A stretch of DNA of 64,000 bases from positions 4,313-68,312 of IMG/VR virus record IMGVR_UViG_3300042362_000298; one strand, 5' to 3'. The DNA comes from a virus. Below the pieces are notes generated by a model. That model did no database searches. It was not told the origin of the DNA and saw only the letters and a program-made list of their open reading frames with translations. Positions 8,633 through 64,000 of the stretch are shown here, piece by piece; position 1 is the first letter of the stretch, and each line of letters begins with the position of its first letter. Both the position numbers and the translations under genes were made by a program.

Positions 8633-8887
8633 ATGAACATTATGCGGTTTGATGAGCTGCAACACTGCCCTGAATGCGGTAGTCTCTGGCACGACCAGCC
8701 GATTCCAGAAGAAAGCCGTCATTTATTTGGCGGCTCTGAATGGTTTAGCCGCGTGATTCTCCTGTCGTCGCGGGAGGCAGACCGTGGCTTTGCCTATCAA
8801 TGCCCAGACTGCGGCACCACTTGGGACCGTGGCACTGGCGCGATCATTGACCATCCCAAAGTAAGCCTTTCGTTTCCCCGACCATGA
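8633..8887 (+). CDS. zinc-ribbon protein
   Basis: CPECG...CPDCG. Confidence 0.7.
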   Translation: MNIMRFDELQHCPECGSLWHDQPIPEESRHLFGGSEWFSRVILLSSREADRGFAYQCPDCGTTWDRGTGAIIDHPKVSLSFPRP

Positions 8888-58872: not shown

Positions 58873-59049
58873 GATGGTTGTTAACGCTGCAAGGAAGGTC
58901 GCCTCGCGAAGGAAGCCCTCAAGGCGATTGTTTCAAGCGACCTTCCTCCTGGCCCTCTCGAAAAGCTTTCATAAGCTCCCTTCGCAGAGGCCCGATACGC
59001 GCAGAAGCCCCCAAGGCGATTGTTCCAAGGGCCTCTTCTAACAACCATC
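58873..59049. ncRNA. three-armed structured element (RNA or ssDNA)
   Basis: 11-bp perfect closing stem GATGGTTGTTA/TAACAACCATC and 10-bp arm GGAAGGTCGC/GCGACCTTCC. Confidence 0.45.
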
Positions 59050-59472
59050 TCCTAAACGACTTTCTTCTTCTGCTTAAATGCTCGTAAATAGCCTCGAGCC
59101 GCTGAAAGTGTGCGCAGCAGCAATAGAAAAATGAAAATTAAGCAATAATTTATGCCATAACGGCATTACTAAGAAAAATCTATGGGAAAGGCATTAATCT
59201 ACGCCGCTTTGGGCGGCTTCTTCTCGTAAGCCTTTCCTTGGTGCGAACAATCTTAATGCGCTCACTCCAATGCATTGCAGACTAGATCGTTCGCGCAGTG
59301 CGCACTAGCTTTATAAGCACGTTCGTAAATTGTTGGAGTGGGTGTAAATATTGGGCAGAAAAAGTCGTTTGAAAATATCCCGTCATCAATTTTGGGATAC
59401 CCCGCACCTCTGCAAAACTTTTTGCCGTGCTACTGCGCTGCAGCCAATCTACCACCAATCCGCCGCCAATTC

Positions 59473-59488
59473 TGTAGCCGTTGATACA
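59473..59488. promoter_or_regulatory. NtcA-type box TGTA-N8-TACA
   Basis: TGTAGCCGTTGATACA in non-coding DNA. Confidence 0.45.
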
Positions 59489-59615
59489 GTTTCATGGTTT
59501 GCAATGATTAGGAATGCTGGACAACCGGCAAATCTGGAGAATTCCCCCCTTGCCCAAGCAATAGAAAGGCCCCACCTAATGGCAGGGCCTGCAGCCAGGA
59601 GACAGCCTGGGCCCC

Positions 59616-61469
59616 TTATTCGGCCCATTGAGTGGTGCTGAAAGCTGCCCGACCACCCCCGGCCAGGGGCTGCCATGCACCGACCAAAGGCTGAAGGCTG
59701 AAGGCTGCAGCCTCGGGCCCCCGGCCCCTGCTGGCCTTGGTGCGCAACAGCACAGCCACGCCGTCAAACCCTAGGGGCTGAGGCCCTGCAGGATCGGCCC
59801 AGCGGTGATCGGTGGCATCCCCATCAATGCACAGCAAGCGGGCCACGCTGTCCCCATCGCGCAGGATCAGTACGTCGGGCAGGGGCTGCCCCTTTGCAAA
59901 GCCTGCAGGCACAGCCAGCCGGAATCCTGCGGTGATGGCGGTCAGTGCTTGGGCAATGCCCCCCGGTCTATCAGCAGCCAGGGAGGCTGTAACGTCCCAT
60001 CCTGCCGATCGTTGGGCCTGCAGGCCCAGGGGGCCAGCTACAGGGGCCTTGCTGTACTCATACAGTCTGACGGTGCCTGCAGGGGCCAGGGCCAGGGCCT
60101 CAGCCAGGGTGATTCCTTGGCCAGGGGCTACGGGCAGCCCGTAACGACGGGCCAGGGCTTGGGCCTCTGCAGGGCTGACAGTGAAACGCCACAAGTGGAT
60201 GGGGCTGTCATCGGTGCCCCTAAGTCTGACAGCCAGGGGCAGCCCCTTTGCCTGGGCCTGCCGGTAAGCCCGCGCAATAGCCCACAGCACGGCCCGAGAG
60301 TAGACGGGGCCCCCGGCCAGCATGGCAAGCGTGCGACGGGCACGGGCTGCTGCCACGGTCACAGACAAACCCCCGTGGCCAGCCCAAGCCAGGCAGCCAG
60401 CCGCGCAGCCTTTGGAAGCCCAGGGGCATCCATTATGGGCCATGGCCAGGGCCAGGGTATCAGTACTGCTGGCCAGTTCAGCCAGACCAGGCACCCGCGA
60501 CCGTGGGGCTGTGGGGCCAGCCTCAGGTCCTGCAATGGCAGCAGCCAGGGAACGAGCGGGCAGATGGTGCAGGATCACGGGCCAGGCCAGGGCTACCCCC
60601 TTTGCAAGCTTGGCATTGGATGCCCCCACTGTCAGCAGCCCGTCAAGGCTGAGGCCAAACCTTTGGAGCAGGGCTGCCACGTCAGCAGGCAGGCGGGCAG
60701 GGGCCACGCTACGGGCCAGGGGGCCAGGGGCCACGCTACGGCCAGGGGCTGCAGGGGCAGGGGCTGCAGGCAGCCGCCCCGTGATCTCAGCCCCCACCTT
60801 TGCCAGCAGCCGCAAAGGGGCGCCCTGATCCACGGCCTCTAGGGCGGCCTCAGTCGCAGCCTGTCGCCAATCACGGCGGCCCTCAGCGGCCAGGGCTGCA
60901 GCAGACTCTCCCGGATCATCCCAGGCCACACGGCCACCACGGGCAGGATGGCGCCATTCTCTGCCCTGCTGCGGCTGCTGCTGCTGCTGGGAGTAGGTCA
61001 CAAAGGCGGGTAGCTCAGGGCTCAGATCCTCCCAGGCCATGGCCAGGGCCAGATCCTCCTGATCAGCCTGCAGGGCCTCAGGGCTCAGATCCTCCCAGGC
61101 AAGGGCCACCGTCAGATCGTCCTGGGCCTGCCGCACAAAGGCGGGTAACTCAGGGCCGGGGCCTGCAGGGGCAGGGGCTGCAGGGGCAGCGGCAGCGGCT
61201 GCAGCCTTGACGGCACGGGCACGGGCAGCGGCGGCATGATCGCGCAGCAGGGCAGCGGCCACGTCTGCCAGCGTCTGGCAGGGGGTGGCGCATGCACCGG
61301 GCAGCCAAACGTTCCATCCGTAGCGGCCCGCATTGTCCAGGCGGATCATGCGGCTGCCAATGGCACGGGCGGCGGCCTCAATGCGGGCGGCAGTGTAGCG
61401 GGGGCGGGGGGCCAGATAGGCGAGGCCCTCGGCTGCTGTAAGGGCGGGGGCGGGGGTGGTGGTGCGCAT
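59616..61469 (-). CDS. GP88-family (radical-SAM-like) protein with low-complexity N-terminal half
   Basis: SNAKLAK, CPWASKGCAAGCL, VRLRGTDD, YEYSK, IDGDATDHRWAD. Confidence 0.75.
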   Translation of the reverse strand: MRTTTPAPALTAAEGLAYLAPRPRYTAARIEAAARAIGSRMIRLDNAGRYGWNVWLPGACATPCQTLADVAAALLRDHAAAARARAVKAAAAAAAPAAPAPAGPGPELPAFVRQAQDDLTVALAWEDLSPEALQADQEDLALAMAWEDLSPELPAFVTYSQQQQQPQQGREWRHPARGGRVAWDDPGESAAALAAEGRRDWRQAATEAALEAVDQGAPLRLLAKVGAEITGRLPAAPAPAAPGRSVAPGPLARSVAPARLPADVAALLQRFGLSLDGLLTVGASNAKLAKGVALAWPVILHHLPARSLAAAIAGPEAGPTAPRSRVPGLAELASSTDTLALAMAHNGCPWASKGCAAGCLAWAGHGGLSVTVAAARARRTLAMLAGGPVYSRAVLWAIARAYRQAQAKGLPLAVRLRGTDDSPIHLWRFTVSPAEAQALARRYGLPVAPGQGITLAEALALAPAGTVRLYEYSKAPVAGPLGLQAQRSAGWDVTASLAADRPGGIAQALTAITAGFRLAVPAGFAKGQPLPDVLILRDGDSVARLLCIDGDATDHRWADPAGPQPLGFDGVAVLLRTKASRGRGPEAAAFSLQPLVGAWQPLAGGGRAAFSTTQWAE

Positions 61470-61712
61470 GACCTGGGGGGGTGAGTGGGCCCAGCTCTCG
61501 CCGGGATACCCCCATTAGAGGGCCTGCCCCCGTATCACGTCAACCAAAGGGGCAGGCTAGGGGGCCAGTTGCAAAGGTGGCCCACTAGCCCAGGACTGCA
61601 GGGGGCCAGAGATGGTAGGGGCTGCCGCTGCTGCTGCCCGTGATCGCCACCCCCCGTAGAAGTAACCGCGCAGGCGCACGCGCCTACCATGAAACAAGCG
61701 AGAATGGCGGCC

Positions 61713-61958
61713 TGATCAGCAGCGCTGATCATTGGCTCTGGTCCCATAGGCTCAGCTTGTCTGATCAGCTCAGCTTGTCATGCGGGCCACGGCTCATAGG
61801 CTCAGCTTGTCAGATAGGCGCAGCTTGTCAGAGGAGACGGTCAGATCAGCTCAGCTTGTCAGATAGGCTCAGTCTATGGGAGAGGGGCTGGCCCATAGGG
61901 CTGGCTTGTATGATCAGCCGGGCTGATCATTGGGGCGGGAATCATAGGACCAGCTTAT
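61713..61958. repeat. array of paired 15-bp ATAGG/ATCAG-N5-CTTGT/CTGAT sites, ~49-50 bp period
   Basis: sites start at 61715, 61746, 61764, 61796, 61814, 61845, 61863, 61895, 61913, 61944. Confidence 0.85.
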
Positions 61959-61960
61959 GT

Positions 61961-62089
61961 AGTACGTTTGTACTACTATGCGGCTATGCGCATAGGAGAA
62001 TAGTAGTACGCTTGTACCATAGTACGCCTGTACTATTGAGAACGATTCTCATTATCAGTAGTACGTTTGTACTATAGTACGTTTGTATC
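61961..62089. promoter_or_regulatory. five cyanobacterial LexA-type boxes (AGTAC-N3-TGTAC)
   Basis: at 61961, 62005, 62021, 62060 and 62076 (last degenerate); matches RGTACNNNDGTWCB. Confidence 0.7.
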
Positions 62090-62139
62090 ATTGAGAACGA
62101 TTCTCATTCTCACGGGGGGAAATGAGAACCATTCTTACT
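62035..62139. promoter_or_regulatory. three Fur-type boxes (A(T/A)TGAGAA-N3-TTCT(C/T)A)
   Basis: 19-bp near-palindromes at 62035, 62090, 62121. Confidence 0.6.
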
Positions 62140-62140
62140 A

Positions 62141-62209
62141 ATACCGAGCTGGCCGGGTCTTTTAGGCACCCAGCCGGGTCTTGATACCGAGCTGGCCGGG
62201 TCTTTTAGG
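62141..62209. repeat. 26-bp direct repeat with a third core copy
   Basis: ATACCGAGCTGGCCGGGTCTTTTAGG at 62141 and 62184; GCCGGGTCTT also at 62173. Confidence 0.85.
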
Positions 62210-62780
62210 ACGCTGGCCGGACCCTGCCTTTTAAGTTTTGATCTTGATGTTTCCAGCTTTCAAATCTGCAAATCTTTTTAATTGTATGATAAGCAACATT
62301 AAATTCTTTTGAAAGAAAATAAGCGCTTTCTCCATGTTTAACACGCAAGCGAATTGCGCTTACCTCCCAAGATGCAAGCTTAGCATTTTTCTTTGCTGCG
62401 CCACACGCTTGTAAACCATTGACCCATGCATGCCTTGCGTTATCACTATTGGTGGTCCATTCAAGATTAGAAATATGACTATTAAGCTTATTTCCGTCTT
62501 TGTGATTTACGCACCACTTATCAGCTCCCAGTCCAACTTCCCCAGGGGCAGGAGGCATCCATGAAAGTCGCATCAAATAATAAATAGCACGAGGTTGCGA
62601 CCTGCTGCCTTCTCTTAGTAACACCCATGGATAAGGATGAGTTGCATCGGTTTGGGGACTCATTAACCCTTTCTTGAAAACGCTCCAAACATCACCGTTT
62701 TCGTTAATAAAATAGCGCCCGCCATACCCTGGGACCTCCTTGAATCCCTTGGGCACGCTGCTATGCTTGTCTGTAGCCAT
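62205..62780 (-). CDS. NUMOD4-HNH homing endonuclease
   Basis: FKEVPGYGGRYFINENGDV; VNHKDGNKLN...NLEWTT..DN..HA; C-terminal HTH. Confidence 0.88.
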   Translation of the reverse strand: MATDKHSSVPKGFKEVPGYGGRYFINENGDVWSVFKKGLMSPQTDATHPYPWVLLREGSRSQPRAIYYLMRLSWMPPAPGEVGLGADKWCVNHKDGNKLNSHISNLEWTTNSDNARHAWVNGLQACGAAKKNAKLASWEVSAIRLRVKHGESAYFLSKEFNVAYHTIKKICRFESWKHQDQNLKGRVRPAS

Positions 62781-62859
62781 GGCCAAACCTTCTCTTTGGT
62801 AGTGGTTAGAAACGGCGCGGGACTGGCATCTCGCGTCGTTTTGCCATGCTAACGCACAA

Positions 62860-63015
62860 TCACCAGCCTTGGCCTGCTTGAGCCGCCGCGACGGCGGCTT
62901 CTTCGTCCCTGTACGGCCCTCCCACCTCTTCTCCATCGTCCTCATACCAGTACCAGCCTTCCACAAGCTCTGTGCCCTTGCAGCAGGCTTCAGAGAAATA
63001 ATCAACCAGTATCAC
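62860..63015 (-). CDS. small hypothetical protein (51 aa)
   Basis: GTGA overlap; ...EGWYWYEDDGEEVGGPYRDEEAAVAAA. Confidence 0.55.
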   Translation of the reverse strand: MILVDYFSEACCKGTELVEGWYWYEDDGEEVGGPYRDEEAAVAAAQAGQGW

Positions 63016-63425
63016 GAGAATTCTCCAATAATGTAGTCAAAAGGGCCGTCGCCACCATGGCCAATGCAATGGTCAGGATACAAGGCATGCCTGGCAAGCC
63101 CACAAGGTCCAATCGTAGCGTGATTGTCTGCTAACCATTTCTTGTCGAAAAGCTTTTCTGACCGTCCTTTTCTATCCCAAACAATGGAAAAGAAAAGAGC
63201 AGGATCAATGGAATCTCCATACTCGTTTCTGATTTCATAGTCTTCTTCTTCTGTTTTGTAATGAATGTAGCTCCATAAAGTGGCCCAATTGTCTAAACCA
63301 AGCTCAGGATATACGTGCAAGCCAAAGCACCAGCCCTTAGAACTCTTGCCGAGGTGTAGGGGCTTTTCTGGTTCCTTGCCGCAATGCTCACAAGAAGGAG
63401 CGTGCAGGAAATAGTTAGTGCCCAT
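63012..63425 (-). CDS. conserved hypothetical phage protein
   Basis: MGTNYFL..CEHCG...LHLGKSS.GW.F, I.NEYG, ends GEFS. Confidence 0.75.
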   Translation of the reverse strand: MGTNYFLHAPSCEHCGKEPEKPLHLGKSSKGWCFGLHVYPELGLDNWATLWSYIHYKTEEEDYEIRNEYGDSIDPALFFSIVWDRKGRSEKLFDKKWLADNHATIGPCGLARHALYPDHCIGHGGDGPFDYIIGEFS

Positions 63426-63751
63426 TATTTCACTTCCTCCACAAGCTTGTTCCACATCCATTGCTCCTTCGTATCAGGGCGCATCAGCTCGTAGCCTTCG
63501 TGGTCGACAATGCTATCACCAGCGCTGTCCACATGCCCTTCCATAGAAAGCCTCCAGAGGCCCTTACAAGAGCCTTCTGCATCAAAGATGGCAATGGTAT
63601 CTTCTCGGTCTTCCATGGCCAGTCTGGTGTGGAAGAGGAGCTCTTTAAGGCTCGTTGCTTGGTAGCAGCCCTTCGTTGCAGAGAAGTAGGGGCCATTGTC
63701 TTGAAAGGTGCGGACGGTCGCTCTTGCCTTAGGGCGCATAGTGGTTTTCAT
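63425..63751 (-). CDS. hypothetical protein
   Basis: 108 aa; TAATG overlap. Confidence 0.65.
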   Translation of the reverse strand: MKTTMRPKARATVRTFQDNGPYFSATKGCYQATSLKELLFHTRLAMEDREDTIAIFDAEGSCKGLWRLSMEGHVDSAGDSIVDHEGYELMRPDTKEQWMWNKLVEEVK

Positions 63752-63754
63752 GGT

Positions 63755-63928
63755 TCAGAAAGGTTCGTAAAGGGGCTCGTAGTCTTCTTCGTCACTTGGC
63801 AGTTCCTTGATGATGAACGAGGTGCCAGCGGCTTCGTAGATGGTCTTTAACTGATCACGCTCTTCAATGGTGAGAGCATAATCTTCGTAGCCATCTTCAG
63901 AAGCAAAATAAAACACTGAACGAATCAT
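63755..63928 (-). CDS. small acidic protein (57 aa)
   Basis: MIRSVFYFASEDGYEDYALT... Confidence 0.5.
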   Translation of the reverse strand: MIRSVFYFASEDGYEDYALTIEERDQLKTIYEAAGTSFIIKELPSDEEDYEPLYEPF

Positions 63929-64000
63929 TGGTCTTCTCCGATAATGCGAAAATCAGGATCATTTTCCTTTTTAATCCATCGACACTGATTGGTGCCAGGG

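Follow-up and report, generated by a model that had tools for sequence, protein, structure and literature searches.

A modular array of LexA- and Fur-type boxes in front of a GP88-family gene in a lake-water cyanosiphovirus

Host LexA directly switches Bacillus phage GIL01, Vibrio CTXphi, tum of coliphage 186 and operon I of SaPI. In these systems, host LexA boxes on mobile DNA give SOS control without a phage LexA; the boxes number one to three, overlap defined promoters, and belong to temperate elements. The locus described here is the non-coding region at 61,470-62,230 of a 64-kb stretch of viral DNA (“the window”: bases 4,313-68,312 of the 68,312-bp contig IMGVR_UViG_3300042362_000298), which holds no credible gene and lies between a 617-amino-acid (aa) open reading frame (ORF) of the GP88 family and an HNH endonuclease gene, both on the minus strand. 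It resembles the GIL01-type switches in presenting LexA-type boxes on phage DNA, and differs from them in having five, with no recognizable promoter, with Fur-type boxes interleaved, and with no match to a tyrosine integrase or ParB in the genome. It is read here, tentatively, as a host-repressor-gated modular control region in front of a swappable GP88-family accessory cassette.

NtcA and PhoB sites occur in cyanophage genomes. Motifs of the host regulator system HLR1/RpaB are also found there (PMC6525291). The common theme is that host regulators are borrowed to time or condition expression; what is unusual in the present case is the density of the sites and their tandem multiplication. For Fur, a site downstream of the start acts as a roadblock at isiA in Synechocystis (PMC8634477). 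The likeness extends to the 7-1-7 form of the boxes and gives a roadblock within a transcribed stretch a precedent, whereas here three such boxes lie on a phage genome and are tiled with LexA-type boxes. Phage genes under host LexA or Fur, and host-regulator motifs in cyanophages (PMC6525291), are already known kinds; no description of LexA/Fur box arrays in cyanophages was found in the titles and abstracts of the open-access literature. What sets this locus apart is the dense tiling of two repressors' operators without a recognizable promoter, the tandem duplication of boxes, the conserved multi-iteron region into which the boxes plug as optional modules, and the tie of that region to the GP88 family across distant phage lineages.

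The boxes and the repeat modules around them

A first-pass annotation of this DNA, made from the bare letters, had described a dense tiled array of LexA and Fur boxes, and this holds: five LexA-type and three Fur-type boxes all lie within 61959-62140, filling about three quarters of those 182 bp. Its statement that the LexA boxes match RGTACNNNDGTWCB is exact for four of them (61961, 62005, 62021, 62060), which are the only exact matches in the window, and needs amending for the fifth (62076-62089), which has one mismatch. In 100 shuffles the mean count was 0.19, and none reached four. Nostoc LexA sites follow this same pattern, and the cyanobacterial consensus is given as AGTACWNWTGTACT (PMC3091678); two of the window sites are one mismatch away from the latter. 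The recA LexA boxes reported in that paper are CGTACGTTTGTACT in Synechococcus CC9902 and CGTACGCCTGTACT in WH8102 (PMC3091678), from which the window cores AGTACGTTTGTACT (two copies) and AGTACGCCTGTACT (one copy) differ by the first base alone. As far as pattern goes, these are LexA (SOS) boxes of the cyanobacterial kind.

The Fur-like boxes were likewise correctly spotted, and all three are inverted repeats of the TGAGAAT-N-ATTCTCA type, which is that of Fur boxes. Allowing up to one mismatch, TGAGAAYNATTCTCA has seven strand-wise matches in the window, five of them at the three array sites, against a mean of 0.10 in shuffles (0 of 100 reach seven); the remaining two are single one-mismatch sites at 8885 and 57881. 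Two of the boxes are exactly TGAGAACGATTCTCA, given as the feoA/feoB Fur box of Enterococcus faecalis (PMC6056675), and the third is two mismatches from it. Compared with the Xanthomonas Fur consensus AATGAgAATcATTctCATT (PMC1790865), the three sites agree at 17, 17, and 16 of 19 positions; compared with a cyanobacterial Zur consensus (PMC9337993), they agree at 14 of 16 specified positions. Because the sites also fit the Zur consensus, they are not assignable to one member of the Fur family (Fur, Zur, PerR). The two palindromes of module F, earlier labeled “LysR-like,” fit just a generic ATC-N9-GAT and were given no weight; the first-pass suggestion of a carbon regulon has only this generic pattern behind it.

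Six repeat families (A-F; Table 1) make up 61,713-62,230. Exact or near-exact copies of all six are restricted to the region, the exceptions being the two one-mismatch Fur-like sites mentioned above. From the distal side toward the 617-aa gene the order is D, C, B, E, F, A, with the C and B boxes interleaved and the F palindromes flanking the A repeats. The D iterons, spaced at 21, 22, and 21 bp, are the most gene-distal. Among the five LexA-type boxes are two pairs in tandem at 16 bp, and the presence of a 55-bp LexA-LexA-Fur super-repeat in two copies is evidence that the boxes have multiplied by tandem duplication. The modules also differ in composition: GC content is 69% in the GP88-family gene, 67% in the leader, 56% in A/F, 40% in B/C, and 63% in D, in a genome of about 50%.

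Table 1. Window coordinates of the modules, the leader, and the adjoining genes
Feature	Position	Strand	Remarks
GP88-family gene	59616..61469	-	617 aa, 69% GC; PF17338, 31.4 bits, above the Pfam gathering cut-off of 24.4
GC-rich conserved leader	61470..61712	-	terminator-like hairpin, TACCATC core, candidate promoter
Module F	61713-61731, 61911-61929		two 19-bp palindromes, TGATCAGC-N3-GCTGATCA
Module A	61743-61886		three pairs of 18-bp direct repeats, core GCTCAGCTTGTC; five repeats and one degenerate copy
Module B	61960-61975, 62004-62019, 62020-62035, 62059-62074, 62075-62090		five LexA-type boxes, TAGTAC-N4-GTACTA
Module E	61976..61996	.	CTATGCGGCTATGCGCATAGG with palindrome TATGCGCATA (61985-61994)
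Super-repeat	62002..62111	+	55 bp, LexA-LexA-Fur, two copies, 87% identity
Module C	62035-62053, 62090-62108, 62121-62139		three Fur-type 7-1-7 boxes, TGAGAA-N3-TTCTCA type
Module D	62141..62228	-	four direct iterons, 21-22 bp; core GCTGGCCGGGTCTT and variants start at 62148, 62169, 62191, 62212
HNH endonuclease gene	62205..63005	-	between the backbone genes and the array

The leader contains a terminator-like GC hairpin at 61682-61667 and a TACCATC core at 61613-61607 (manual count). GATC and TGATCA sites are crowded in the segment of modules A and F, with 6 and 5 of them, respectively, in some 220 bp (61,713-61,930), as compared with 244 and 48 over all 68,312 bp of the genome; the cluster could matter for binding that is sensitive to methylation. 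On a larger scale, a GC island of 65-69% extends over window positions 59,600-62,000 within the genome of about 50% GC.

Conservation in front of GP88-family genes

A survey of related phages for similar arrays, proposed in the first pass, did find them, in the same place upstream of the GP88-family gene. Eighteen viral loci with close GP88 relatives were collected as subfamily 1, 16 of them with enough upstream sequence, and in all 16 a repeat-rich non-coding stretch stands in front of the GP88-family gene. A single strict pattern places D-type iterons upstream of the gene in 10 of the 16 (two or more in 8), and a variant iteron unit occurs in L015-L017; wherever iterons are found, they form the distal module. 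LexA-type boxes are present in seven loci, five of which have three or more matches, and Fur-type matches also in seven. One relative, L006, has the same array as the window; another, L018, has a 74-81-bp Fur-LexA-E unit in three copies. Other loci fill the middle part differently, with AT-rich 25-34-bp repeats (L003, L005, L007) or with TGATCA or GATC modules in the same place as the window's cluster (L010, L020). Repeats of the ATGCGCAT or CGCATACA kind take module E's relative position in L003, L010, L015, L018, and subfamily-2 loci (below).

The leader is the more constant part. Over the 241 nt ahead of the start codon, identity is 90-91% to L006, L007, and L008 and 85% to L070, which is higher than between the GP88-family proteins themselves (63-70%), even with a middle part as different as that of L007. 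The TACCATC core is invariant or nearly so over 12 aligned loci.

A second GP88 subfamily, 25-30% identical to the window protein, has a comparable layout. Read toward the genes, it begins with D iterons, an AT-rich stretch, ATGCGCAT palindromes, and two tandem LexA boxes plus a third; after these come ATAAGCTGAGCTTAT-type palindromes and more iterons, and last a GC hairpin with its T-run and a conserved leader that adjoins the genes. D-type iterons appear in the consensus of 19 subfamily-2 loci, and the ATAAGCTGAGCTTAT-type palindromes are related to F and in the same place. The order iterons, AT-rich modules, palindromes, hairpin, gene is common to both subfamilies. Three subfamily-2 loci (L024, L045, L052) additionally have two octamers, 2 nt apart and about 100 nt past the LexA boxes, close to the HLR1/RpaB consensus (G/T)TTACA(T/A)(T/A)-N2-repeat (PMC6525291); with such a motif, three host regulators would be represented in the same control region.

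Are the LexA-type boxes concentrated there, or is the association a matter of how the loci were chosen? The subfamily-2 test set of 44 loci was picked by protein similarity only, and 9 of the 44 contigs are also in the tandem-LexA-box set described below. In these, the LexA-type pattern has 44 matches in the 1.5 kb upstream of the genes (63,770 bp) and one in the other 193,963 bp; matches may overlap at tandem junctions, and these numbers are hits and not box counts. Where at least 1 kb of flank is available (n = 42), 23 loci have at least one match, 14 at least two, and 7 at least three. Subfamily 1 has 24 matches over 41,105 bp of upstream sequence, as compared with 6 over the other 88,316 bp.

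The boxes themselves are more widespread than this gene family. Tandem LexA boxes 16 bp apart (24 specified bases) were found in 69 viral contigs. The 67 new loci among these (L024-L090) have an overall GC of 0.31-0.62, and some of the contigs exceed 100 kb; a profile search found a GP88-family ORF in 15 of the 67, at 430-1,960 bp from the boxes, with the boxes upstream in all 15. Other settings occur too: several LexA-box clusters with no GP88 gene nearby follow a minor tail protein gene (phrog_1924) and precede a phrog_2554 gene, and others adjoin thymidylate synthase, ligase, or terminase genes. At least 119 viral contigs contain the Fur 19-mer ATTGAGAAYGATTCTCATT in exact form. Among the matches listed, the 115 new loci (L135-L249) have unrelated flanks and an overall GC of 0.26-0.63, and six have a GP88-family ORF, with the box upstream in all six. 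With at least 119 contigs, unrelated flanks, and so wide a range of GC, Fur boxes seem to be common on environmental phage DNA of many hosts. That the same LexA half-sites and Fur 19-mer recur across this range suggests that conserved host proteins are what binds them.

The GP88-family gene itself is a swappable cassette. In the related Synechococcus phage S-CBS4, no GP88 homologue, box array, or D iterons were found, and the ends of its record meet precisely where the window phage has about 6.8 kb extra. In six other loci (L118, L120-L122, L126, L127) a flanking gene is 96-99% identical to the window's 108-aa gene (63,425-63,751), and subsets of the six share the neighboring 149-, 79-, and 134-aa genes at 85-99%; in this slot, all six nevertheless have a GP88 gene that belongs to the other subfamily and is about 25% identical. 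Since flanks of 96-99% identity surround the other GP88 subfamily, near-identical backbones swap the cassette while the D iterons stay, and the slot is a hot spot for cassette exchange.

The identity of the motifs, their restriction to one site, their conserved position and orientation relative to GP88 genes, the modularity of the region, and the tandem duplication are all directly supported by these comparisons.

A possible host-repressor gate and its alternatives

The array shares its strand with both the upstream genes and the GP88-family gene. A consensus scan found no terminator-like site from the upstream gene to the hairpin at 61682-61667, and transcription from upstream would therefore cross the array. 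The first-pass annotation had pointed out a promoter-like TTGACG-N18-TCTAAT at 61543-61514, which is indeed present on the minus strand, is a candidate promoter of the GP88-family gene, and lies beyond the hairpin as seen from the array; it is kept in L006 and L007 and, with changes, in L070, and was not called by the consensus scan. Because the scans found no terminator-like site or sigma-70-type promoter inside the LexA/Fur segment, and the candidate promoter lies beyond the hairpin, the segment can be read as a gate. As long as the host is undamaged and iron-replete, dimers of LexA and Fur would coat the middle segment, eight of them on 182 bp, and this nucleoprotein block would gate RNA polymerase, whether it came from the co-directional genes upstream or had started at non-canonical sites within the array. 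The block would be lifted when LexA is cleaved, after ultraviolet (UV) light or DNA damage induced by the phage, or when Fur loses its iron, and expression of the cassette would follow host stress. As a possible, secondary effect, replicating genomes would titrate the repressors. The binders, the direction of control, and the output are in each case what we infer.

Several points weigh against this proposal. A LexA box that controls a gene would be expected to overlap or adjoin its promoter; neither the consensus scan nor a looser one placed a sigma-70-type promoter over any box on either strand (non-canonical cyanobacterial promoters being outside these scans), and the looser scan found none in the L006 array. 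The candidate promoter that does exist is 420-580 bp downstream of the boxes, with the terminator-like hairpin in between. Five plus three consensus-grade sites exceed the needs of simple repression. Nine of the 16 close relatives, and 19 of the 42 subfamily-2 loci, keep the region without any LexA-type match, which makes the LexA boxes an input that the device can do without rather than its core; in many relatives the array is kept with no LexA or Fur boxes at all. None of the 24 sequencing runs listed as containing the region is an RNA run. Lastly, the picocyanobacterial host is one that we infer, from kinship with S-CBS4 (portal identity), the lake-water origin of the runs, and one homologue from a Synechococcus metagenome-assembled genome (MAG).

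If host LexA and Fur do bind, infection by a common group of phages of lake picocyanobacteria would be wired directly to UV/DNA damage and to iron status, both of which shape blooms, and the locus would be a natural case for studying operator arrays on a replicating genome as sensors, roadblocks, or sponges. Two comparative results hold whatever the mechanism: the uncharacterised GP88 family has a non-coding control region tied to it that is modular and swappable, and environmental viral contigs often carry tandem LexA boxes as well as Fur boxes.

The layout also recalls lambda ori, P1, and iteron plasmids, with their three or four phased direct repeats of about 20 bp, AT-rich segment, and downstream gene. 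A replication origin would consist of the iterons, the AT-rich middle, and the GATC cluster, with LexA and Fur as accessory or architectural host factors, or as a means of making initiation dependent on host stress. The phasing of the iterons (21, 22, 21 bp) and their presence in most related loci fit such a site, as do the adjacent 182 bp at 40% GC between flanks of 56-67%, the local excess of GATC and TGATCA over the genome-wide numbers given above, the sequence of repeats followed by a gene as in iteron plasmids, and the location within the early/replication gene region. What makes this reading doubtful is the company the site keeps: the adjacent protein is not Rep-like (a barrel-like predicted fold with three conserved cysteines), and a short pattern found no DnaA box. 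S-CBS4, moreover, has a primase/helicase 58% identical to that of the window phage (tblastx), yet lacks both the cassette and the D-type iterons, which indicates that the backbone replication proteins do not need the site; and near-identical backbones hold a very different cassette in the slot.

Another possibility, on present evidence an unlikely one, is that the array is a free-standing repressor sponge, titrating LexA and Fur as genome copies rise and so derepressing the host's SOS and iron regulons. Consensus-grade sites, the lack of an overlapping promoter, and tandem multiplication are the sequence features expected of a decoy array, and the tandem growth has taken place in separate lineages (the 55-bp unit here, the 74-81-bp units in L018). 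Clusters of four Fur-type matches with no LexA match (L128, L129) or of five to six LexA-type matches (L017, L037) are of the same kind, and multicopy Fur sites titrate Fur in the laboratory. Position and orientation relative to one gene family are conserved more tightly than a sponge would need, however, and it is for this reason that regulation is favored; many relatives have one box or none, and a single array offers just 5 + 3 sites per genome. In a synthetic yeast system, tandem consensus decoy sites sequester a factor and sharpen its response (PMC3322331); that system is synthetic and eukaryotic, and no natural phage example was found in the titles and abstracts of the open-access literature.

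Gating and titration might also be combined. Cyanophages without a repressor of their own would use dense arrays of host LexA/Fur operators, through which host repressors would silence part of the phage program as long as the cell is healthy and iron-replete; with rising genome numbers the arrays would in turn soak the repressors up, unlocking the cassette together with the host's SOS and iron regulons. This is improbable as a whole; if true, it would amount to a natural transcription-factor sponge and stress sensor, and a widespread one (69 tandem-LexA contigs, at least 119 Fur-19-mer contigs).

Binding by phage proteins only, to operators that resemble LexA and Fur boxes by chance, is distinctly improbable. 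Families D, E, F, and A fit no host motif that could be named (NtcA, HLR1, and DnaA-box patterns were not found in the array, the DnaA pattern being short), and some further binder is needed for them in any case; several small ORFs near the array have no family assignment. The half-sites of the LexA- and Fur-type boxes, however, recur in contigs of very different GC and flanks, which fits a conserved host protein better, and a domain search of the phage genome found no protein with a LexA DNA-binding domain and none with a Fur domain at an expectation value (E) up to 0.01.

The first-pass annotation had also spoken of arrays near termini and offered a decoy or DNA-entry role. Its motif identities stand; as to role, the relatives point instead to a positioned, modular control region of one gene family. 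A terminal location is not borne out: the contig's last 126 bases (window 63,875-64,000) reappear at contig bases 19-144, behind 18 unmatched bases, so that the assembly closes on itself even though the contig is classed as linear. The break is about 1.8 kb from the array, which is thus not at a demonstrated genome end. A packaging or DNA-entry element (an accessory of pac or cos, or a stop or shield site for host proteins during ejection) is very improbable: the ends of the S-CBS4 record (which may or may not be physical ends) do fall exactly at the syntenic slot, the GP88-family gene of Mycobacterium phage Steamy is the fifth after a 1,360-bp unannotated stretch at the record's right end, and the TGATCA cluster is reminiscent of the P1 pac site, but the window contig closes with its 126-bp overlap, the large terminase gene is 10 kb away, and the S-CBS4 record-end junction has no such repeats.

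Steamy represents the early-operon start of L5-like mycobacteriophages, where a GP88-family gene near the right end likewise comes after a long non-coding control region, with all later genes on one strand; in L5-like phages the sites serve the phage's own repressor, and the GP88 proteins are about 28% identical. A parS centromere or an attP site finds no partner in the phage genome, where neither ParB (PF02195) nor a tyrosine integrase (PF00589) had a match at E up to 0.01, serine recombinases not having been searched.

The GP88 protein, the source phage, and variant arrays

The protein that the region precedes falls above the Pfam gathering cut-off for GP88 (Table 1). Its N-terminal ~250 aa are of low complexity and variable among relatives, and residues 250-617 are conserved. 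Among 8,000 candidates scored, 562 proteins were homologues at E up to 0.001; PF17338 was present in all 120 homologues among the matches listed, none with a functional name, and one homologue is labeled as coming from a Synechococcus MAG. In an alignment of 50 diverse members, C99 and C110 are invariant and C106 is present in at least 90%. The domain was modeled with confidence (pLDDT 93). A Foldseek search of the model against the PDB returned nothing at E up to 0.001, and sequence searches of the PDB with the protein had no match; a search of a protein atlas returned GP88 clusters only, and a viral structure library gave GP88-domain proteins and one named Gp37/Gp68-like. In a wide structural search radical-SAM enzymes came out on top, at Z 5.0-6.2; chance arrangements give values of this size too, as the tool itself points out, and the result is taken as a hint only. 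The protein is probably an enzyme-like barrel with a three-cysteine site, judging from the model, and is not recognizable as a replication initiator or DNA-binding regulator. The GP88-family gene has a GC content of 66-72% in all 18 related loci, against 42-58% for the neighboring genes.

On the other side of the array, the HNH endonuclease gene is optional, being present in 6 of 19 loci compared. Its stop codon adjoins the fourth iteron, and it may be a mobile insertion.

The phage itself is placed by its gene content and synteny as an S-CBS4-like cyanosiphovirus from lake water. It has a siphovirus gene set (tape measure, J-like tail protein, major head protein, portal, large terminase, primase/helicase, ribonucleotide reductase) and one tRNA gene, for tRNA-Ile. 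Its portal protein and the S-CBS4 portal share 65% identity; the recorded host of S-CBS4 is Synechococcus sp. CB0101, and the two phage genomes are syntenic over most of their length (tblastx); a DNA-level similarity search against deposited phages gave no match. All 24 sequencing runs listed as containing the phage DNA are lake water metagenomes. A scan of genome contigs for the host side returned a single hit, one actinobacterial MAG.

A plus-strand 145-aa ORF over the array (61640-62077) was deemed spurious, being composed of the repeats (judged without a coding test); it clusters with ORFs in the same place in three relatives, which is attributed to conserved DNA. No Rfam family matched across 59,000-64,000 at E up to 1. 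A structured RNA in the 241-nt leader was considered and rejected: the fold is no better than in shuffles (z = 0.78), and no structured-RNA claim is made for that reason.

The array is stable across several lake runs and may also exist in a variant arrangement. Contigs of four lake runs end at about 62133-62166, within the iterons, at low depth, and no inference is drawn from this; contigs of run X5 cover the array in parts. In three other lake runs it is letter-identical, with 0 differences, over 60,999-62,133 (X2), 61,464-62,138 (X3), and 61,895-62,336 (X4). One X2 contig joins position 62,057 back to 62,034 via 23 other letters, including a TATGCGC stretch, and this joint suggests that a variant arrangement of the box modules is present in the population.

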